From NCBI GenBank assembly GCA_028699255.1, contig JAQVUX010000004.1, positions 24,668-88,667 on the forward strand: 64,000 nucleotides of DNA, read 5' to 3'. Both the position numbers and the translations under genes were made by a program. Positions 1,180-30,483 of the stretch are shown in pieces. This DNA comes from Candidatus Omnitrophota bacterium. Lineage in GTDB: Bacteria; Omnitrophota; Gorgyraeia; 2-01-FULL-45-10. Under the pieces are notes generated by a model. That model did not search any database and was not told the DNA's origin. It saw only the letters and a list, made by a program, of their open reading frames with translations. Positions within the stretch are counted from its first letter, which is position 1. Each line of letters opens with the position of its first letter.

Positions 1180-1359
1180 ATGGGGCTTTACAGCGAGAAG
1201 TGCGGTTTTGGAAAAAGGAAAAAGGGTGTAACACAGCAGAAGCTTATTAAAAGGAAGATGGTGCAGTTGATGGTTAAAAAGGCAAAAGCGGCCGGCAAGC
1301 CGGTTGACCGGCAGGCCATCAATAAAGAGGTATTTGACGCGGTTCGCAGGAAGAGATAA
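1180..1359 (+). CDS. Small lysine/arginine-rich hypothetical protein (59 aa). It is absent from the ORF track because it is under 60 aa.
   Basis: ATG at 1180 lies 7 nt after an AGGAGG RBS (1168-1173). It translates to MGLYSEKCGFGKRKKGVTQQKLIKRKMVQLMVKKAKAAGKPVDRQAINKEVFDAVRRKR and stops at 1357-1359. It overlaps the implausible minus-strand ORF 1147..1374. Confidence 0.35.
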   Translation: MGLYSEKCGFGKRKKGVTQQKLIKRKMVQLMVKKAKAAGKPVDRQAINKEVFDAVRRKR

Positions 1360-1388
1360 GAGCGAAAAGCTCACTATAAAGGAGTAAG

Positions 1389-1853
1389 ATGAAAAAGGTT
1401 TCGGATTTAGCTGAGCTCATGGTTCAGATACAACAACAGCTTGCATCATTAGAAAAGAAGATAGACATTGTAATAAACCGCCCCCAGGAGAGGCCTTTCG
1501 AGGGAAAGCGCAATTTTACTCCGCCGCAGAGATTCGATCCGGCTCAGCGCATCCTGCATAAAGCGGTCTGCGCGGATTGCAAGAAAGAGTGCGAAGTACC
1601 TTTCAGGCCCACCGGCGATCGTCCCGTATACTGCAAAGAATGTTTCTCAAAGCGCAAAGCGAGTGAGCCGTTCAAACAAGGCGGCGATCATAGGCACGCG
1701 GAACCGAGGCACGCAGATTCGAGACACACGGAATCAGGACGCGCGGAATCGAGACATTCGCCGAAAGCGCCTTATTACAAGCGTTACACCGGTGACCGTA
1801 AGGCCGGCACAGGCAAGAGGAAGTCTGCGGGTAAGCGTAAGAAGCGCGAGTAA
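1389..1853 (+). CDS. Hypothetical protein with an N-terminal coiled-coil, a CxxC...CxxC zinc ribbon and a basic C-terminal tail carrying in-frame pentapeptide repeats.
   Basis: RBS AAGGAG precedes the ATG. The zinc ribbon is CADCKKECEVPFRPTGDRPVYCKECF. It is followed by HAEPR-HADSR-HTESG-RAESR-HSPKA, encoded by 15-bp tandem repeats, and by a K/R-rich C-terminus. Confidence 0.6.
   Translation: MKKVSDLAELMVQIQQQLASLEKKIDIVINRPQERPFEGKRNFTPPQRFDPAQRILHKAVCADCKKECEVPFRPTGDRPVYCKECFSKRKASEPFKQGGDHRHAEPRHADSRHTESGRAESRHSPKAPYYKRYTGDRKAGTGKRKSAGKRKKRE
1695..1769 (+). repeat. Five tandem 15-bp repeats (consensus CACGCGGAATCGAGA), in frame inside the CDS 1389..1853.
   Basis: The units are cacgcggaaccgagg, cacgcagattcgaga, cacacggaatcagga, cgcgcggaatcgaga and cattcgccgaaagcg. 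They also generate the artefactual ORFs 1663..1863(+) and 1672..1890(-). Confidence 0.7.
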
Positions 1854-1884
1854 ATGGCGATAGCAGAAAAGGGGAGCTTCCGAC

Positions 1885-2595
1885 ATGCATAATTTTATCG
1901 GGGAATTTTTCGGTACGATGGTGCTGGTATTGCTCGGTAACGGCGTTGTCGCGAATGCGCTATTAAAAAAGAGTAAGGGTGAGAATAGCGGATGGATGGT
2001 GATAGCAAGCGGGTGGGGATTCGGTGTCGGCGTTGCGGTTTACATTGCCGGCTGGATCAGCGGCGCGCATCTTAATCCCGCTATTACACTCGGATTCTTT
2101 GTTATCGGCAAGATAGCTCCGAAAGAGATCCCTCATTATCTGGCCGGGCAGATACTCGGCGCTTTCATCGGAGCCGTTATCGTGTGGCTGGCATATCTTC
2201 CGCACTGGAAGGTTACAGAAGATTCCGACAAAAAACTTTCATGTTTCTGCACTATGCCGGCAATTCGTAACTACGGCGCGAACCTCTTATGTGAGATAAT
2301 CGGTACGGCGATGCTTCTGATGGGAGTGCTCGGAATATTCAATGTCCATAATTCCATTGGTAGCGGTATCGGACCCTATCTTGTAGGTATACTCGTTTTC
2401 AGTATAGGGCTTTCTCTCGGCGGGCCGACCGGCTACGCCATAAATCCGGCGCGGGATCTTATGCCGCGTATAGCGCATGCAGTTCTTCCTATCCCCGGCA
2501 AGCGCGACCCCGATTGGGCTTACGCGTGGGTACCTGTTGTCGGGCCGCTCATCGGCAGTATTATCGGCGCGGGGTTGTATCATATAATTTTTTAA
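1885..2595 (+). CDS. glpF: Aquaglyceroporin / glycerol uptake facilitator (MIP family)
   Basis: Two NPA motifs (SGAHLNPAITLG and YAINPARDL) and six predicted TM helices. The length is typical of GlpF/AqpZ. Confidence 0.85.
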   Translation: MHNFIGEFFGTMVLVLLGNGVVANALLKKSKGENSGWMVIASGWGFGVGVAVYIAGWISGAHLNPAITLGFFVIGKIAPKEIPHYLAGQILGAFIGAVIVWLAYLPHWKVTEDSDKKLSCFCTMPAIRNYGANLLCEIIGTAMLLMGVLGIFNVHNSIGSGIGPYLVGILVFSIGLSLGGPTGYAINPARDLMPRIAHAVLPIPGKRDPDWAYAWVPVVGPLIGSIIGAGLYHIIF

Positions 2596-2643
2596 GACAT
2601 CCCAAAGATTGACAGAAGAATACTTATAAGGTAATCTATACGT

Positions 2644-3618
2644 ATGTACGACGCATTTTTATACCACCCAGACAAAGGTATCAAGACCGGAGTTTCTACT
2701 CAGGAGATCGTCGATGCCCTTAAAGATGAGCGCTCGCTCATATGGCTCGATATGCTTGATATGGATGATTCCGACATCGATTTTCTCACGTCGGTATTTA
2801 ATCTGCATCCGCTTACCATAGAAGATTTTATAATGCCGAATGCCCGCCCCAAGATCGAAAAATTCAAAGACTATTTTTTCCTAATCATGTTCTCGCTGGA
2901 ATCGATAGGCGTGAACGGCGCGGAAAAAGTAAAGACCGCGGAACTGGATTGCTGTCTCGGGAAAAACTTCCTGATCACTTTCCATAATTGCCCTTTAAGC
3001 TCCGTAGAGGTTTGTAAAGAGAGGAGCAAAAAGGATTCGCCCATGATGATGCATGGGGCGGATATGTTACTTTATTCCATACTCGATTCATGCGTTGAGA
3101 GTTATTTTCCTATAATACAGAAGTTCGATAACTTCGTGGACGAGATGAGTGATGAATTATTTAAGGAGCCGAACCAGGAAACTTTAAGAAAGATATACCA
3201 TCTTAAAAACGAGATAATGTACTTACGGCGCACTATAGGCCCACAGGCCGATATTATATCGTCAGTCGCGCGAGGTGATTTCGAGCTCATATCCCCGGCG
3301 AATATTATCTATTTCAGGAATATATACGACAATCTTGTGAGGCTCAATGATATCATCGGTACTTCCCGCGACGTTATCACAGGCGCCATGGAAGCTTATA
3401 CATCGATCGTATCGAACCGCCTGAATGAAGTAATGAAGACTCTTACGATAATAGCCACTATAATGATGCCGCTCACTCTCGTAGCCAGTATTTACGGAAT
3501 GAATTTTAAACATATGCCGGAATTGAACAGCAAATTCGGATATCCGGCCGTGCTCGCCATAATGATAACCATAACTACCATGATGCTATTCTTTTTCAAG
3601 CGTAAGAAATGGATCTAA
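2644..3618 (+). CDS. corA: Magnesium/cobalt transporter CorA
   Basis: A C-terminal two-TM region carries the GMN signature (IYGMNFKHMPEL). The length and the acidic N-terminal domain are typical of CorA. Confidence 0.85.
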   Translation: MYDAFLYHPDKGIKTGVSTQEIVDALKDERSLIWLDMLDMDDSDIDFLTSVFNLHPLTIEDFIMPNARPKIEKFKDYFFLIMFSLESIGVNGAEKVKTAELDCCLGKNFLITFHNCPLSSVEVCKERSKKDSPMMMHGADMLLYSILDSCVESYFPIIQKFDNFVDEMSDELFKEPNQETLRKIYHLKNEIMYLRRTIGPQADIISSVARGDFELISPANIIYFRNIYDNLVRLNDIIGTSRDVITGAMEAYTSIVSNRLNEVMKTLTIIATIMMPLTLVASIYGMNFKHMPELNSKFGYPAVLAIMITITTMMLFFFKRKKWI

Positions 3619-4477: not shown

Positions 4478-5497
4478 ATGAAGCGAAGCAAGCTCTACCA
4501 GATAGTGAAATCCACCGGATATTCTGTCGCTACGGTTTCCAGGGCGCTCAATGAAGAGACTGCGGGCGTTGTGAGGGAAGCTACCCGGAAAAAGATATAT
4601 ACCGCCGCCGAAAAAATCGATTATATACCCAACAGGATGGCGAAATCGCTCAGGCGCCAGCGGACGGATACCTTCGGATTTCTCATTAATTTTGAGACGG
4701 ACACGATCAGTGGTTACGTTCACGAGATACTGAACGGTGTGATCGATGGCTTAAAAGGAAGTTCTCTAGACCTTAAGATCGTTTCATCCGCCCGTCATCA
4801 TACGCTTCAGGGAATAATAAAGATACATGGCCTCGACGGGCTTATATTGCCGTACGGATACGGGCATGAATTCCCGGACTTGGCGCGGGAGAGTGAACAA
4901 TATAAGAATAAGGCCTGGCCCGTCGTGATGATAAATGACTACCATCGTAAATTTTACATGAGCCAGTTATATAGCGATAACTATTCGGCTTCGCGGCATC
5001 TGGCCGAATATCTTATCGATAAAGGATATAGGCGTTTTTTCTTTATAGGGTGTGGATCGGATTCTCCGGATTCGAGCGCCAGGAAGAAGGGTTTTTTAGA
5101 TGCCATGAAAGAGCGGAAGCTACGTTTCGACGTCGAGAACGATATCGCAAACGGTTATTTTACGGAGCAGGGCGGATATGAGGCGGCTAATCGATTTTTG
5201 AGCCGTAAATCGTTAAAACACAGTGTGATATTTTGCCTGAATGACAGCATGGCGCTCGGCGCGATAAGAGCGATCGGCCAGGCGGGATTTAAATGCCCGG
5301 ACGAGATCGCTGTAACCGGTTTCGACGGTATAGCGGCCGGCGAATTTTCGAATCCGCCGCTTACAACGGTAAAGCTGGATCTGCATGAAATGGGCAGGTC
5401 CGCGGTCATTATGCTTAAAGACATACTGGCCGGCAGGCAGAAGCGGTTTGTGAAGAAAAAATTTCCTTTTAAACTGATAGAGCGGCAGTCGGCATAA
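4478..5497 (+). CDS. LacI-family transcriptional regulator
   Basis: N-terminal HTH (YQIVKSTGYSVATVSRALN) followed by a periplasmic-binding-protein-like sugar-binding domain. Confidence 0.85.
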   Translation: MKRSKLYQIVKSTGYSVATVSRALNEETAGVVREATRKKIYTAAEKIDYIPNRMAKSLRRQRTDTFGFLINFETDTISGYVHEILNGVIDGLKGSSLDLKIVSSARHHTLQGIIKIHGLDGLILPYGYGHEFPDLARESEQYKNKAWPVVMINDYHRKFYMSQLYSDNYSASRHLAEYLIDKGYRRFFFIGCGSDSPDSSARKKGFLDAMKERKLRFDVENDIANGYFTEQGGYEAANRFLSRKSLKHSVIFCLNDSMALGAIRAIGQAGFKCPDEIAVTGFDGIAAGEFSNPPLTTVKLDLHEMGRSAVIMLKDILAGRQKRFVKKKFPFKLIERQSA

Positions 5498-25461: not shown

Positions 25462-26130
25462 ATGGAACGACATTTTGACCAGGAGTTGAAAGAGCTTAAC
25501 AAAGATATTCTGAGAATGGGTTGTTATGCGGAAGAGGCGATATTCAAATCGATAGAGTCTCTCAAAAACCGCGACGCTTCGCTCGCCAAAAATGTGATCA
25601 AAGGCGATGCCGACGTTGATAAGCTGGAATTGGATATAGATGAGAAATGCATAGACCTGATCGCCCGTTATCAGCCGATGGCCAAGGACCTGCGTTTTAT
25701 CACGACAGGCATGAAGCTGAATACAGAGCTGGAGCGGATAGCCGATATAGCCGTCGATATCGCTCAGCGTTCGCTGGAACTCTCGAACAAGCCGCTTTTA
25801 AAGCCGCTTGTGGATATACCAAGGTTGACGGCTGTCGCGCAGGGTATGGTGAAGCTTTCAGTCGATTCATTCGTAAAACAGGACGTGGGATTAGCCAGAA
25901 AGGTAATACTATCCGACAGCGAAGCTGACCTTTTAAGAGATACTATCTCGAAAGAGCTCGTGGACGACTACATGATGAAAGACCCGTCTTCCGCCCCGAG
26001 AGCCGTTCAACTTCTCCTGATAACGCGCTTTCTGGAACGTATTTGCGACCACACCACCAATATAGCCGAAGACGTCATATATATGGTCCAGGCCGAAGTC
26101 GTAAAACATCATCCGGAAAAATTGGGATGA
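25462..26130 (+). CDS. phoU: Phosphate signalling complex protein PhoU
   Basis: Two PhoU repeats (the E...D...R..ERI.D motif occurs twice). The N-terminus MERHFDQELKELNKDILRMG is typical of PhoU. Confidence 0.85.
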   Translation: MERHFDQELKELNKDILRMGCYAEEAIFKSIESLKNRDASLAKNVIKGDADVDKLELDIDEKCIDLIARYQPMAKDLRFITTGMKLNTELERIADIAVDIAQRSLELSNKPLLKPLVDIPRLTAVAQGMVKLSVDSFVKQDVGLARKVILSDSEADLLRDTISKELVDDYMMKDPSSAPRAVQLLLITRFLERICDHTTNIAEDVIYMVQAEVVKHHPEKLG

Positions 26131-26146
26131 AGTTTTTAGGAATGCC

Positions 26147-26190
26147 TTGTCAAAAAATAATTGACAAACATAATCATGAATGGTATATAT
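26147..26190 (+). promoter_or_regulatory. Strong sigma70-type promoter(s) with an embedded inverted repeat TTGTCAAaaaaataaTTGACAA. It drives the riboswitch-thyX-nrdDG transcript.
   Basis: TTGTCA(26147-26152)-N17-ATAATC(26170-26175), and overlapping it TTGACA(26161-26166)-N17-TATATA(26184-26189). It is preceded by the conserved motif GAAGTTTTTAGGAATGCCTTG, shared with the promoter at 47078. Confidence 0.55.
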
Positions 26191-26199
26191 AACACATAA

Positions 26200-26335
26200 C
26201 TTTGGCAGGGAATTCGGCGAGAATCCGAAACTGTACCCGCAACTGTATACAGGCATATAATGTGACCTGTGAGTCAGAACGCGAAGTCCTCCGGGGATAG
26301 AGGTGCTAAAATAGTCTTAACAAGGAAGATTATTT
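26200..26335 (+). ncRNA. Leader element resembling the 5' half of a cobalamin riboswitch (GGGAA...CCCGCAACTGTA) but lacking a clear GCCACTG/B12 box. It ends in an intrinsic terminator.
   Basis: GGGAAttcGGcGaGAATCCgaaaCTGtaCCCGCAACTGTA at 26208-26247 matches the conserved J3/4-P4 region of RF00174. The 3' half does not match. Confidence 0.3.
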
Positions 26336-26373
26336 GACCCAACCTCTATGAAAAAGGTTGGGTTTTTTGTTTT
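26336..26373 (+). terminator. Rho-independent terminator (CCCAACC-loop-GGTTGGG + TTTTTTGTTTT)
   Basis: Stem 26338-26344 / 26356-26362, followed by a T-run 26363-26373. Confidence 0.7.
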
Positions 26374-26394
26374 ACAATACAAATATATACAGGT

Positions 26395-26631
26395 CCTGCT
26401 TAAAGCAGGATAAAAGGGAAGCTTGTAAAGTCAAGCGCGGTCCCGCCGCTGTAACCGGGGACGAAAGTCACAACTAGCCACTGTCTAGTATTCATTAGGC
26501 GGGAAGGCGTGATGAGTAGACTGATCCGGCAGCCAGAAGACCTGCCTGTATGTGTAGCCTCGCGGAAGGATTAAGTAAGCAGGGTGCAATCCTTAAGCTT
26601 TTTATAATTAGCTTAAGGATTTTTTTATTTT
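26395..26631 (+). ncRNA. Cobalamin (AdoCbl) riboswitch with a transcriptional expression platform, upstream of thyX-nrdD-nrdG
   Basis: In order: GGGAA (26416-26420), CCCGCCGCTGTAA (26442-26454), GCCACTG (26477-26483), GGGAAGGC (26501-26508) and the B12 box AGCCAGAAGACCTGCC (26531-26546). Then an antiterminator hairpin AAGGATT...AATCCTT (26566-26594) that is mutually exclusive with a terminator CCTTAAGC...GCTTAAGG + T-run (26591-26631). Confidence 0.75.
26591..26631 (+). terminator. Riboswitch-controlled intrinsic terminator
   Basis: CCTTAAGC (26591-26598), loop tttttataatta, GCTTAAGG (26611-26618), followed by ATTTTTTTATTTT. Confidence 0.65.
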
Positions 26632-26877
26632 ATGCGAATCAACGTATTAACCGATAAACCTACAGATAGTATTTTGAAAAGTTTATTTCAAGAGGATTTT
26701 TCGCTTGTCAGGGAGCAAATACTGGAAGCACTTACTTGCGAACCGGACAAAAATAAACTCTTTGGAGTTATTCTATGTGAGCATTTTAAGAAAGTCAAAG
26801 AATGTGAGAATCTTAGTCTAAAAATAATCGCATTAAAAAACGTATTAATGGCGTTGGATTATCTGGGAGAGCAGTGA
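26632..26877 (+). CDS. Hypothetical small protein (81 aa) in the AT-rich leader between the riboswitch and thyX. It may be non-coding.
   Basis: The ORF starts immediately after the terminator T-run with no RBS. AT-rich. No known motif. Confidence 0.25.
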   Translation: MRINVLTDKPTDSILKSLFQEDFSLVREQILEALTCEPDKNKLFGVILCEHFKKVKECENLSLKIIALKNVLMALDYLGEQ

Positions 26878-26880
26878 TAT

Positions 26881-27036
26881 ATGCCTAATAGAACAATTTT
26901 GTTAGATGAAAAAGAATTAATTGAGCTTCAGAGGATTTTGCTGGATAAAGACGAAAAGGGCGCATTAGAGTTTTTAAGAAAAATCGAAGAGAGATCAAAG
27001 CCATCAAAGAGCGTATGCAGGCCTTGGGGCAAATAA
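26881..27036 (+). CDS. Hypothetical small protein (51 aa)
   Basis: Weak GGAGAG RBS. Translates to MPNRTILLDEKELIELQRILLDKDEKGALEFLRKIEERSKPSKSVCRPWGK. Not in the ORF track because it is under 60 aa. Confidence 0.2.
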   Translation: MPNRTILLDEKELIELQRILLDKDEKGALEFLRKIEERSKPSKSVCRPWGK

Positions 27037-27051
27037 AAAGGAGGCGGGTAA

Positions 27052-27804
27052 ATGACACAGGTGAAATTACATGTAGAATTATTGGATTTTTCACAGAATG
27101 CCTTGTCTATAATCTATGCGTCATGTCGGCAGTGTTATTCGGCGGATTTTGCCGGGAAGATATTTGCCGATGGCCTTAAGGACGCATCGAAACAGGAAGA
27201 ATTTGTACGGCAGGTCGTCTCTTCGGGGCATGAGAGCCCCCTTGAGCATGTGAAGTTTACCTTTGCCATTGAAGGCGTATCAAGGGCGTTAACTCATCAG
27301 CTTGTAAGGCACAGGATAGCTTCATATTCCCAGCAGAGCCAAAGATATGTAAAAGAAACCTCTTTTGACTACATTATCCCGCCTTCAATAGAATCCGATG
27401 AAGAGATGAAGAGGGAATACATCGGCGTTATGCATAAGATCCAGGATAGTTATAACAATCTGTTAAAGCTGTTTGAGAAAAAAGGCAAGAAGGGCGAAGC
27501 GGCAAATCAGGATACGCGTTTTGTACTACCTCAAGCGGCAGAGACAAAGATAGTCGTGACTATGAATTGCAGGGAACTGAAACATTTCTTCGAAGAGCGG
27601 TGCTGCACCCGGGCGCAGTGGGAAGTTAGGAAACTGGCTGAAGAAATGCTAAAGATATGCAAACAGGAGTTGCCCGCTGTTTTTAATAATTCTGGGGCAA
27701 AATGTATAAAACTTGGATATTGTCCGGAAGGCACGAAATTTACATGTAAGAAGTACCCGTTAAAAGAAGAAGCCCTTGGAGGTAAGTATGCCGATGCTCG
27801 TTGA
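27052..27804 (+). CDS. thyX: Flavin-dependent thymidylate synthase ThyX
   Basis: ThyX signature RHRIASYSQQSQRY (RHRx7-8S). RBS AAAGGAGG upstream. Confidence 0.9.
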   Translation: MTQVKLHVELLDFSQNALSIIYASCRQCYSADFAGKIFADGLKDASKQEEFVRQVVSSGHESPLEHVKFTFAIEGVSRALTHQLVRHRIASYSQQSQRYVKETSFDYIIPPSIESDEEMKREYIGVMHKIQDSYNNLLKLFEKKGKKGEAANQDTRFVLPQAAETKIVVTMNCRELKHFFEERCCTRAQWEVRKLAEEMLKICKQELPAVFNNSGAKCIKLGYCPEGTKFTCKKYPLKEEALGGKYADAR

Positions 27805-29896
27805 AAATATGTTTAAAAAAATAGTAAAAAGGGATGGCTCCGAAGAAGAGTTTGATTCCAGGAAGATTGTAAATGCTATAAATAAAGCAGGAGTTGCGGC
27901 GGGGGAGTTCGGTATTGATGCTGCCGAAAAGTTGGCTGACAAGGTTTTGAATACAGCCTTTCAGTTTACCGTTAACGACAATCCGTCAGTCGAAATGATG
28001 CAGGATATCGTGGAAGAGGTGCTTATAGCCTCTCCCTATAAAAAAGCCGCCAAGGCGTTCATTTTATATAGAGATGAACATGCCAGGATACGGGAAATTA
28101 CATCGAAGTTTAACGTTAATCTTGTGGATCAATACATCAATAACATGGATTGGCAGGTAAAAGAGAACAGTAATATGGGTTTTTCTTTGCAGGGGCTTAA
28201 TAATTATCTTTCTTCGGAAGTGAGCAAGATATACTGGCTCAATAAAATTTACACCAATAATATTAAGGAAGCTCATTTGGGCGGAGATTTTCATATCCAC
28301 GACCTTGGCATTTTAAGCGCATATTGCGTCGGATGGGATCTTCAGGATCTGCTTCTCACGGGATTTAAAGGTGTCAGAGGCAAGGCGGAGGCGAAGCCGG
28401 CAAAACATCTTCGAACAGCATTAGGACAGATAGTGAATTTCTTTTATACGCTTCAAGGGGAGGCGGCAGGCGCTCAGGCCTTTTCGAATTTCGATACATT
28501 ATTGGCCCCGTTCATACATTACGATAATTTAGATTATAAGGCCGTAAAACAGGCGCTGCAGGAGTTCCTCTTTAACGTGAATGTTCCCACGCGCGTAGGT
28601 TTTCAAACGCCTTTTACTAATATAACGCTCGACTTGACGATTCCGTCGTATTTTAAGGATCAGCCGGTAATAATAGGAGGTGAGCAGCAGTCAAAAACGT
28701 ATAAGGAATTTACAAAAGAAATGGATATGTTCAACAGGGCGTTCCTGGAAGTGATGTTGGAAGGTGACGCCAAGGGTAGGGTATTTACTTTTCCGATCCC
28801 GACCTATAACATATCGAAAGATTTTGATTGGGATAATTCAAACTTGTCTTTATTGTGGGAGGTAACCGCCAAATATGGGATACCTTATTTCGCGAACTTC
28901 GTTAACTCCGATATGAATCCGGAAGATGCCCGTAGCATGTGCTGCCGTCTGCGTATCGATAATCGCGAGCTTCGCAAGCGTGGGGGAGGGCTGTTCGGCT
29001 CGTCACCGCTAACCGGCTCCATAGGTGTGGTGACCATAAATATGCCGCGGCTTGGGTACTTGTCCAAAAGCGAAGATGAGTTTTTTGCCAGGCTGGATAA
29101 ACTCATGCGCATGGCAAAAGCAAGCCTCAGGATTAAGAGAAAAATGCTGGAGCAATTAACCGCAAATGATCTTTATCCTTATGTTAAGTTTTATCTTAGG
29201 AATGTTCATCAGCGTTTTGGGGAATATTGGAAGAATCATTTTTCTACGATAGGACTTACAGGCATGAACGAGGCCTGTCTTAATTTTTTGGGGGAAGATA
29301 TCGGCTCAAAACGTGGAAGGGAATTTGCTTTGAAAGTTATGGATTTTATGAGGGATAAGCTCCTGGAGTTTCAAAAAGAAACAGGTGATAACTACAATCT
29401 TGAGGCTACCCCCGCCGAAGGGACGTCTTACAGGCTTGCTAAACTTGATAAAGAAAAATATCCGGGGATCATAGATGCTAATAATATTAAAACGGATGGC
29501 AAAAAACCGTCATTCTACACGAACTCAACCCAGCTTCCAGTAAACTATACCGACGATCTTTTTAAATTGCTGGATCTTCAGGATGCGCTTCAGGCAAAAT
29601 ACACAGGTGGAACGGTCCAGCATCTTTTTATCGGTGAAAGGATAAGCAATACGGACGCGCTTAAAAGCCTGATTAAAAAAATATGTACAAGATTTCACCT
29701 GCCGTATTTTTCGATTACGCCGACCTTCAGCGTTTGCCCATCGTGTGGTTACATGGCCGGTGAAGTACAAGTATGTCCTACCTGTAAAAGTGTGTGTGAA
29801 GTGTATTCGAGGATCGTGGGATATTTACGTCCGGTAGTCCAATGGAACGACGGCAAGCAGGCCGAATTTAGCATGAGGAAGACATTAAAAATATGA
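27788..29896 (+). CDS. nrdD: Anaerobic ribonucleoside-triphosphate reductase (class III RNR) NrdD
   Basis: N-terminal ATP-cone. C-terminal zinc ribbon CPSCGY...CPTCKS. Glycyl-radical motif RIVGYLRPV. The start is taken at ATG 27788 (RBS GGAGG 27778-27782), overlapping the thyX end. Confidence 0.9.
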   Translation: MPMLVENMFKKIVKRDGSEEEFDSRKIVNAINKAGVAAGEFGIDAAEKLADKVLNTAFQFTVNDNPSVEMMQDIVEEVLIASPYKKAAKAFILYRDEHARIREITSKFNVNLVDQYINNMDWQVKENSNMGFSLQGLNNYLSSEVSKIYWLNKIYTNNIKEAHLGGDFHIHDLGILSAYCVGWDLQDLLLTGFKGVRGKAEAKPAKHLRTALGQIVNFFYTLQGEAAGAQAFSNFDTLLAPFIHYDNLDYKAVKQALQEFLFNVNVPTRVGFQTPFTNITLDLTIPSYFKDQPVIIGGEQQSKTYKEFTKEMDMFNRAFLEVMLEGDAKGRVFTFPIPTYNISKDFDWDNSNLSLLWEVTAKYGIPYFANFVNSDMNPEDARSMCCRLRIDNRELRKRGGGLFGSSPLTGSIGVVTINMPRLGYLSKSEDEFFARLDKLMRMAKASLRIKRKMLEQLTANDLYPYVKFYLRNVHQRFGEYWKNHFSTIGLTGMNEACLNFLGEDIGSKRGREFALKVMDFMRDKLLEFQKETGDNYNLEATPAEGTSYRLAKLDKEKYPGIIDANNIKTDGKKPSFYTNSTQLPVNYTDDLFKLLDLQDALQAKYTGGTVQHLFIGERISNTDALKSLIKKICTRFHLPYFSITPTFSVCPSCGYMAGEVQVCPTCKSVCEVYSRIVGYLRPVVQWNDGKQAEFSMRKTLKI

Positions 29897-30483
29897 AAGT
29901 AGGGGGCTTGCAGAAACTTTCGCTTATAGACTATCCTGGAAAGACGTGCGCGGTAATATTCACACAAGGATGTAATTTCCGATGTGGCTATTGTCATAAT
30001 TTGGAGCTTGTCTATACGGAGTTTTTTACCGAGCCGATTCCTTTCGAACGTGTACATGAATTTCTTAAAGAGAAGGCGGGGTTATTAGACGGTGTGGTTT
30101 TTTCCGGAGGAGAGCCGACTCTGCAGGAAGATCTTATTGACAGGATCCAAGATGTTCGTTCTTTAGGATATGCCGTAAAACTTGATACGAACGGAAGCAA
30201 CCCCTATATTTTATCGGAGATTTTGCCATATCTTGATTATGTTGCCATGGACATCAAGGCTCCTATCGGGGATAAATATGCGCGTGTATGCGGCACGCCG
30301 GTTGATGATTACAATATACGCGTGAGTATATTTTTAATAAAGGCATCGGGAATTCGGCATGAGTTCAGAACGACGTTTGATAAAAAATTGCTGATAAATC
30401 CAGATATCATAAAGATTAAGAATTTAATTGGTAAATCAAGGTTTAATCTGCAGGAATGCGCGGATAGAAAAACTTCCTTATAA
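29893..30483 (+). CDS. nrdG: Anaerobic RNR-activating radical SAM protein NrdG
   Basis: CNFRCGYCHN (CxxxCxxC) radical-SAM motif. ATGA overlap with nrdD. Confidence 0.88.
   Translation: MKVGGLQKLSLIDYPGKTCAVIFTQGCNFRCGYCHNLELVYTEFFTEPIPFERVHEFLKEKAGLLDGVVFSGGEPTLQEDLIDRIQDVRSLGYAVKLDTNGSNPYILSEILPYLDYVAMDIKAPIGDKYARVCGTPVDDYNIRVSIFLIKASGIRHEFRTTFDKKLLINPDIIKIKNLIGKSRFNLQECADRKTSL

Follow-up and report, generated by a model that had tools for sequence, protein, structure and literature searches.

Can a leader that already carries a complete cobalamin riboswitch hold a second, smaller one in front of it? This question is raised by the thyX-nrdD-nrdG leader of a Candidatus Omnitrophota bacterium, which we studied within a stretch of 64,000 nucleotides (nt) from contig JAQVUX010000004.1 (in the following, the window; positions count from its first letter). 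Here, a short structured element with its own intrinsic terminator (26197-26373) directly precedes a full-length cobalamin aptamer. A first-pass annotation of the locus had considered the short element to match only the 5' half of such an aptamer. We conclude that 26197-26373 is probably a complete miniature class-II-type cobalamin (corrinoid) riboswitch, terminator included, in series with a class-I riboswitch (26374-26626). That is, the short element is most likely a real, conserved and compact switch, namely the first of two OFF switches in series, where we infer from sequence that it binds a ligand, which ligand this is and in which direction it regulates.

Relation to the cobalamin riboswitch family

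First, we related the short element to known RNA families. At the gathering threshold, the whole window contains one match to the cobalamin riboswitch family (RF00174), i.e., the full-length aptamer at 26374-26563, which the first-pass annotation had correctly placed downstream. A permissive Rfam scan of 26100-26700 (601 nt) adds a second RF00174 match at 26209-26282 with 29.9 bits (E = 8.7e-06 for the 601 nt searched; about 1e-3 when scaled to the window). Since this is below the gathering score of 31.5 bits, the short element is absent from a default Rfam scan. The resemblance of 26208-26247 to the riboswitch core, the letters of which read exactly as quoted in the annotation, is nevertheless not a chance effect. 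Other weak Rfam matches in the region (MCS4, PyrR, GadY, L10 leader and others; E 0.24-8.8) are far below their thresholds, mostly cover only the terminator hairpin and were dismissed.

The match is not limited to the 5' half. The alignment spans model positions 47-167, including the 3' side of paired region P6, and skips 56 model positions, which are the P7-P11 extension of P6 with its GCCACUG and GGGAAGG motifs. That is, the class-I P7-P11 extension is missing and P6 closes after 5-7 base pairs (bp) with a short hairpin. The GCCACTG motif is thus absent, as had been noticed before. Because lack of GCCACUG is the defining trait of class-II cobalamin riboswitches (PMC7367189), this is no sign of decay. 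The B12 box (consensus AGYCMG-gAgaCCkGCc, at the 3' side of P6/J6-3) had likewise been reported missing, but its first half is present as GAGUCAG (26271-26277; AGUCAG at 26272-77). For the second half, there is only an approximation, namely GAAGUCCUCC (26283-26292) or AAGUCCUCC (26284-92), which follows an insertion of 5-6 nt and overlaps the P13 stem described below.

Aligning the two elements of the leader, which had been proposed as a check, yields about 50% identity over the common core only, found at positions that are conserved family-wide. A recent duplication of the neighbouring aptamer was rejected on this basis, i.e., the short element is neither a recent copy nor a remnant of its neighbour.

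Conservation and predicted architecture

Next, we studied relatives of the short element. Respective loci were gathered via NrdD and ThyX (denoted by L and a number), and the first three copies served to build a covariance model (R1). With R1, we identified five distinct versions of the element, namely those of the window, L203/L204 (ThyX 88% identical), L002, L001 and L212, to which the ThyX-based collection of loci contributed only two new ones (L203/L204 and L212). The four lineages besides the window, all metagenome-assembled genomes (MAGs) of Omnitrophota, score 31.3-35.3 bits against RF00174. The gathering score is exceeded by three versions (L001 35.3, L002 34.9, L212 35.3), while those of the window (29.9) and L203 (31.3) are just below it; for all five, E is between 1e-5 and 2e-4 with respect to the stretches searched. 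For L201-202, L205, L206, L208-211 and L213-222, R1 reported nothing beyond a weak match to a different, class-II-type element of L210 (1079-1202; RF00174 31.8 bits). A metagenome screen with the pattern CCCGCNNCTGTN{12,42}AGNCAGN{3,9}GRAGNCC gave no homologue among 120 listed matches; the pattern is too degenerate, and the matches are mostly chance hits in coding DNA with a high GC content, along with a few cobalamin riboswitches of the ordinary type. A scan of viral contigs with CCTCCGGGRATAGAGGTGC found nothing.

The short element stands alone in two lineages: about 120 nt before thyX-nrdD-nrdG in L203/L204, where Rfam identifies no full aptamer in the leader, and in L001, where a small open reading frame (ORF), thyX and nrdD follow. 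It is in tandem with a full aptamer upstream of thyX-nrdDG in L002, and also in L212, where the operon differs and comprises a TonB-dependent receptor, exbB, exbD, tonB and thyX. A TTGACA box is located 36-39 nt 5' of GCAGNGAA in all five lineages, and in BLAST the window resembles L001 only within 26201-26372. Given the five versions, the sole-leader cases and the confined similarity, we consider the short element a conserved, self-contained unit that is able to act alone.

These observations also bear on the idea that the short element is a decayed or duplicated aptamer that binds nothing, i.e., a relic or a constitutive partial terminator (attenuator). Such an origin would be in line with the sub-threshold scores in the window and L203 as well as with the missing P6 extension and canonical 3' half of the B12 box. 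We rate it as very improbable, since the element is about 88% identical in the five lineages while their ThyX proteins are 76-88% identical, compensatory changes preserve P6 and the terminator, and L5, L13 (bar one G/A position) and the antiterminator pairing are conserved. Furthermore, it is the sole leader element in two lineages, and its low identity with the neighbour argues against a recent copy. Of the explanations offered by the first-pass annotation, a tandem riboswitch and a variant class fit the data; 'half-aptamer', 'degenerate' and 'remnant' appear not to, given the presence of the core helices, the five-lineage conservation and the stand-alone use.

The architecture we propose is summarized in Table 1. 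RNAalifold recovers P4, P6, P13, P1, the middle hairpin and the terminator unaided. For the whole model, 98.7% of the cells (pairs by sequences) can pair and 4 pairs are changed on both sides. The first-pass annotation had allowed for a structure no better than shuffled controls; only 6 of 500 shuffles reach either value, and pairing is at most 52% in slid controls, where partners are moved by 1-3 columns. Among the double changes are two in the inner stem of P6 (A-U to G-C in L001, A-U to C-G in L212) and one in the stem of terminator 1, which shows three further one-sided changes. Within the P6-P13 junction, CGAAG is invariant and 26279-81 and 26287 vary among lineages.

Table 1. Features of the thyX-nrdD-nrdG leader and its operon (positions within the window).
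Feature	Position	Strand	Composition	Basis and remarks
Promoter	26161..26189	+	-35 TTGACA 26161-66, 17-nt spacer, TGg-TATATA 26181-89	read from sequence
P1, 5' strand	26202..26207	+	UUGGCA	proposed; pairs with 26304-26309; RNAalifold
J3/4-type junction	26208..26212	+	GGGAA (GAGAA in L001)	RF00174 model positions 47-50
P4	26213..26229	+	UUCGG:CCGAA (26213-17:26225-29), L4 loop CGAGAAU	Rfam alignment; 96% of cells pair, no informative variation
P5/L5	26232..26241	+	UG:CA (26232-33:26240-41), L5 UACCCG	Rfam alignment; invariant in five lineages
P6	26243..26277	+	outer CUG:CAG (26243-45:26275-77), internal loop UAU/UGAGU, inner stem 26249-53:26266-70, short variable hairpin	
P6-P13 junction	26278..26287	+	AACGCGAAGU	sequence; 10 nt vs. 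canonical 4-nt J6/3
Putative P13/L13 hairpin	26288..26303	+	stem CCUC:GAGG (26288-91:26300-03), loop CGGGGAUA	RNAalifold; -4.0 kcal/mol
Antiterminator, 5' strand	26297..26304	+	AUAGAGGU	overlaps P13 3' side and first P1 pair
P1, 3' strand	26304..26309	+	UGCUAA	proposed; directly after P13
Middle hairpin	26309..26335	+	AAUAGUCUU:AAGAUUAUU	RNAalifold; invariant stem, variable loop; -6.7 kcal/mol
Intrinsic terminator 1	26336..26373	+	stem CCCAACCU:AGGUUGGG (26338-45:26355-62), then UUUUUUGUUUU	-12.1 kcal/mol
Antiterminator, 3' strand	26342..26349	+	ACCUCUAU	last 4 nt of terminator 5' arm and first 4 nt of its loop
Full-length class-I-type cobalamin aptamer	26374..26563	+		RF00174, 118.5 bits, E = 4.3e-29; starts right after terminator 1 U-tract
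Full-aptamer expression platform	26558..26626	+	hairpin CCU-CGCGGA-AGG 26558-69; antiterminator AAGGAUU (26566-72):AAUCCUU (26588-94)	
Terminator 2	26588-99:26610-21	+	stem, then U7	sequence and folding; platform conserved in L002, L212
Operon	26632..30483	+	81-aa ORF, 51-aa ORF, thyX 27052-27804, nrdD 27776-29896, nrdG 29893-30483	

A central feature is the potential contact between two loops. CCCG of L5 (26236-39) and CGGG (26292-95) in the loop of the 26288-26303 hairpin can form four contiguous Watson-Crick pairs, which are invariant in all five lineages; the hairpin itself is invariant except for one G/A loop position. Across the family, L5 has the consensus UCCCG, and in the metE riboswitch of Priestia megaterium, which has been validated, L5 base-pairs with CGGGA in L13 (PMC10653944). 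In L003, the full aptamer is followed by a comparable hairpin, the loop of which is CGGGAAU. Since the loop starts with the exact complement of L5, like the published L5:L13 partners, and given the L003 hairpin, we name the hairpin P13/L13; that is, this 4-bp hairpin looks like P13/L13 based on its sequence. An alternative pairing of L5 with GGUGC (26302-06) was discarded, because GGUGC is better explained as part of P13 and P1, which also accounts for its invariance.

To find the closing helix, we compared three candidates in terms of pairing across the five sequences and folding energy. P1 (26202-07:26304-09) was found by RNAalifold without input, and 96.7% of its cells pair. It shows one double change from G-U to C-G (L001) and one U-U break (L212), gives the best energy among the three candidates for each of the five sequences and has a homologue in the GGCA:UGCC helix that closes the class-II-type element of L210. 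Helix A, i.e., GG-C-AGG (26204-09) with CCUCC (26288-92), was rejected as ligand-bound fold: 88% of its cells pair, the breaks in L001 and L212 are uncompensated, and it excludes P13. We keep it as a likely alternative fold of the modelled unliganded state. Helix B (26201-06:26281-86) was rejected as well (80% of cells pair, no compensation, higher energy). Given the position of P1, P13 would be located inside the closing helix and not 3' of it. This unusual nesting is a reasoned proposal of our model, derived from five sequences at about 88% identity.

Switching model and direction of regulation

We then investigated how the aptamer could control terminator 1. The terminator had been reported before, and the hairpin and the subsequent U-tract are indeed present; a simple terminator scan misses it due to its 9-nt loop. 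The antiterminator AUAGAGGU:ACCUCUAU is a perfect 8-bp helix for which 100% of cells pair in the five lineages. Two of its positions change on one side only (C/U, A/G) with pairing kept. The loop bases CUAU of the terminator, which the terminator alone does not require, are invariant in all five versions.

Within the proposed mechanism, P4, P5/L5 and the short P6, closed by P1, would form the aptamer. With a corrinoid bound, L5 (CCCG) would kiss L13 (CGGG) of P13, such that P13 and P1 are held and AUAGAGGU is not free. With this strand sequestered, terminator 1 (26338-62 plus U-tract) would form and an RNA of about 170 nt would be released. If no ligand is present, the weak P13 and P1 would open and AUAGAGGU would pair with ACCUCUAU; the freed GG-C-AGG and CCUCC could pair as well, and the polymerase would enter the second riboswitch. 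The latter would make its own decision, which would render the leader a two-step OFF device for B12-independent enzymes. From two independent terminators in series it follows that the operon would only be expressed with both switches unoccupied.

Folding energies are compatible with this order of events. P13 contributes -4.0, the antiterminator about -11.5 and the terminator -12.1 kcal/mol. For a transcript that ends at 26350, the unliganded read-through fold, which combines helix A with the antiterminator and coincides with the unconstrained optimum, is at -33.2 compared to -23.3 kcal/mol for the fold with P1 and P13, i.e., there is a gap of 10 kcal/mol. After transcription of the terminator, the difference between the two folds almost vanishes (-35.4 vs. 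-33.2 kcal/mol). P1 and P13 are complete at 26309 and thus 33 nt before the competing strand appears. This modelled profile is what we would expect for a kinetically controlled OFF switch.

The gene context also favours repression, given that nrdDG is found in the window and metE, thyX and TonB receptors in relatives. Generally, nrdDG, metE and TonB-dependent receptors are gene classes that are repressed by B12 riboswitches.

The opposite direction, i.e., an ON corrinoid riboswitch, was evaluated using the same data. Here, helix A would be the ligand-binding fold with a pseudoknot of L5 and GGGG (26293-96), which leaves AUAGAGGU free such that the ligand promotes read-through; without ligand, CCUC would pair with GAGG and the terminator would form. 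In accordance with that, the unconstrained minimum free energy (MFE) fold at 26350 joins helix A with the antiterminator, GAAGUCCUCC looks similar to the 3' half of the B12 box (GGAGACCUGCC), AGG:CCU would be the canonical P3, and an activating corrinoid riboswitch is known upstream of cobT in A. halodurans (PMC10653944). We consider this direction improbable, however. Helix A has the weakest comparative support of the candidates (see above) and the worst energy. The 4-bp CCUC:GAGG hairpin (-4.0 kcal/mol) is too weak to block the antiterminator (-11.5 kcal/mol), so such a switch would read through in the ligand-free state, too. B12-induced nrdDG would make no physiological sense, especially where the element is the sole leader (L001, L203), and an ON switch would defeat itself when placed next to an OFF switch that senses the same ligand. 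Finally, the class-II-type element of L210 also lacks the aGG:CCu pairs and closes via GGCA:UGCC.

A further question is the role of the middle hairpin between aptamer and terminator. In the P. megaterium riboswitch, a structured region at the matching position is needed for full function (PMC10653944). The invariant stem of 26309-35 is only partly explained by cis regulation, and the strong terminator directly follows a structured RNA, such that the terminated RNA of about 170 nt could itself be the product, i.e., a trans-acting or decoy small RNA (sRNA) that reports B12 status. Riboswitch-controlled sRNAs are known in Listeria and Enterococcus. Still, we regard this role, which the first-pass annotation had listed in its decoy variant, as extremely improbable. 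As far as the sequence tells, nothing points towards it: neither target complementarity nor a protein-binding motif was identified, the element is always found in leaders of B12-related operons, in the orientation of the operon and directly adjoining the element or gene that follows, and cis regulation accounts for all conserved segments but parts of the 26278-87 junction.

Beyond a repressing class-II-type switch, the element might represent a new architectural subclass, where the L13 hairpin is inside the closing helix and the canonical P3/B12-box 3' half is replaced, giving a sensor of about 105 nt. Together with the class-I unit (and a third one in L212) it would integrate different corrinoid forms, e.g., methylcobalamin (MeCbl) or hydroxocobalamin (HyCbl) vs. 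adenosylcobalamin (AdoCbl), as a two- or three-input NOR gate, which goes beyond sharpening the response to a single ligand. We consider this extension a tentative one that is on balance rather unlikely.

Several observations weigh against a repressing miniature riboswitch. The window copy is below the RF00174 gathering score, and neither the 3' half of the B12 box nor the canonical P3 (aGG:CCu) is found where it usually is. The comparative base consists of five sequences with about 88% identity, among which P1 is supported by a single double change and shows one break. P4, P5, P13, the L5:L13 kissing pairs and the antiterminator show no covariation, i.e., they are compatible with the model but unproven. 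Helix A can form along with the antiterminator and excludes P13, which would mean an ON switch if it were the ligand-binding fold. Furthermore, none of the ten large ORFs of the window that were scanned encodes NrdJ or MetH, i.e., a B12-dependent isozyme, such that the physiological rationale for repression is unconfirmed in the source genome. With these points taken into account, we still favour the OFF switch at the strength given at the outset.

Leader, operon and relation to known systems

The two aptamers share one leader and have a terminator each, and the second aptamer begins at 26374, i.e., at the base next to the end of terminator 1 (26373). A simple promoter scan found no promoter-like site between them. 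The tandem layout is repeated in L002 and L212.

The full-aptamer platform offers two candidate L13 loops, namely CGCGGA after P1 or GGG (26582-84) in the loop of the AAGGAUU:AAUCCUU antiterminator hairpin; the latter is kept in the window, L002 (about 690-790) and L212 (about 1020-1095). If GGG were L13, the platform would, by analogy, resemble the published activating corrinoid riboswitch (PMC10653944).

L212 holds three cobalamin-type elements in one leader (669-1440), i.e., the short element and a full RF00174 aptamer, both followed by a terminator, as well as a third element of class-II type that acts on translation. This last one is a homologue of L210 1079-1202 with an insert of about 110 nt in P6 and is undetected by Rfam. 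In L203, the sequence after the sole terminator (4650-4668; TTTTTTTATTTTATGCGG) matches the tail of the second terminator of the window (26620-26637), not that of the first. Due to this match, the full aptamer, its terminator and the two small ORFs look like a module that was gained or lost between the two U-tracts.

Transcription probably starts at about 26196-26199, i.e., some 5 nt 5' of the short element, judging from the TTGACA/TATATA promoter (Table 1). A simple promoter scan listed another pair (26147/26174) and missed this one because its -10 hexamer ends in A. The upstream neighbours of the leader are pst genes and phoU, which end at 26130.

Within the operon, Pfam identifies Thy1, NRDD together with ATP-cone, and Radical_SAM. 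An identical ThyX protein is known from a Candidatus Omnitrophica MAG. No Pfam match was obtained for the 81-aa (26632-26877) and 51-aa (26881-27036) ORFs. The 51-aa ORF recurs immediately 5' of thyX in L201, L210, L211, L217 and L222. For the 81-aa ORF, a search of 5.8 billion proteins gave only two homologues, each of which belongs to an operon that also contains TonB receptors, metE and thyX. As a route to relatives it was abandoned, since there are only these two homologues and their contigs, where covered, start inside upstream B12-uptake genes.

We also observed that thyX is repeatedly embedded with metE, nrdDG, DUF4430 proteins and TonB-dependent receptors in the MAGs L201, L210, L212, L213, L220 and L222. 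This typical B12-regulon gene set around thyX suggests that thyX expression is tied to B12 status. Two further observations concern individual loci. L001 shows a group I intron match at 56-246 (RF00028, 55.2 bits vs. a gathering score of 50) with a tRNA gene about 1 kb further on (1266-1338). In L217, nrdD (1268-3375) is called as two ORFs (358 and 347 aa), i.e., there is a frameshift or pseudogene, or an assembly error.

If our reading is correct, the short element would be among the smallest self-contained transcriptional B12 sensors, with an aptamer of about 105 nt including the regulatory hairpin, and a compact candidate for study and engineering. Omnitrophota, an uncultured phylum, would then place two or three B12 switches of different structure in front of operons that serve B12 uptake or encode B12-independent enzymes. 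Such leaders would provide a natural test of whether mixed-class tandems sense different corrinoids and whether a kissing-loop hairpin can work inside an aptamer. For annotation, it implies that short cobalamin elements just under the Rfam threshold can be real and that a 'single' annotated riboswitch may be half of a regulatory device.

Tandem AdoCbl riboswitches with separate expression platforms were reportedly described by Sudarsan and colleagues in 2006. A later survey (Sherlock et al. 2022, PMC9481103) counted 26 tandem AdoCbl doublets; the aquocobalamin (AqCbl; class-II) family is among the families for which it lists no tandem case. A tandem of a class-II-like and a class-I unit is therefore at least uncommon. 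As in the AdoCbl tandems, two cobalamin-family aptamers are found in one leader, each with a terminator, for which a sharper or more complete OFF state is expected. The units here are of different classes (short class-II-like, then class-I), where the survey does not say if any of its 26 doublets are of mixed class, and L212 has three.

Class-II cobalamin riboswitches are devoid of the P2 module, and their P6 is a short hairpin; the ligands are HyCbl/MeCbl for class IIa and AdoCbl for class IIb, with J1/3 telling them apart (PMC7367189). With this class (Cbl-IIa/IIb; env8 HyCbl structure 4FRN), the short element shares the GGGAA junction, P4/L4, P5/L5 and the P6 internal loop. It also lacks the P2 loop-stem-loop, given that the putative transcription start and the closing helix are only about 5 nt apart, has a short hairpin P6 instead of P7-P11 and an L5 that is complementary to the loop of a downstream hairpin. 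Differences are that the L13 hairpin is apparently inside the closing helix while class II has it 3' of P1, that the P6-P13 junction has 10 nt with no evident canonical aGG:CCu P3, and that an intrinsic terminator is used whereas the best-studied class-II examples are translational.

The repressing corrinoid riboswitch of P. megaterium metE (Procknow et al. 2023, PMC10653944) has the same expression-platform logic as our proposal. There, a kiss of a UCCCG-type L5 and a CGGGA-type L13 stabilises a weak P13, the terminator's 5' arm is a pairing partner of the 3' strand of P13, the antiterminator is stronger than P13, and the spacer between P13 and terminator is structured. In contrast, it uses a full-size aptamer with P13 outside P1, while the aptamer studied here has about 100 nt including P13 and is known from sequence only. 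The L210 element (1079-1202) shares the closing helix GGCA:UGCC/U followed by (A/G)GGAA and the short P6 hairpin. Its P13, however, is 3' of the closing helix with the ribosome-binding site in the loop, i.e., control is translational, whereas in the window P13 would come after the junction and before the second strand of the closing helix, with control via termination. For the nested-P13 architecture and the mixed-class tandem and triple arrangements we found no description in the papers that we consulted, and nothing here overturns existing knowledge. The short element is thus most likely a structural variant of the known cobalamin riboswitch family, which departs from described class-II RNAs by its long P6-P13 junction, a canonical P3 and second B12 box half that are absent from their usual place, and the apparently nested P13.

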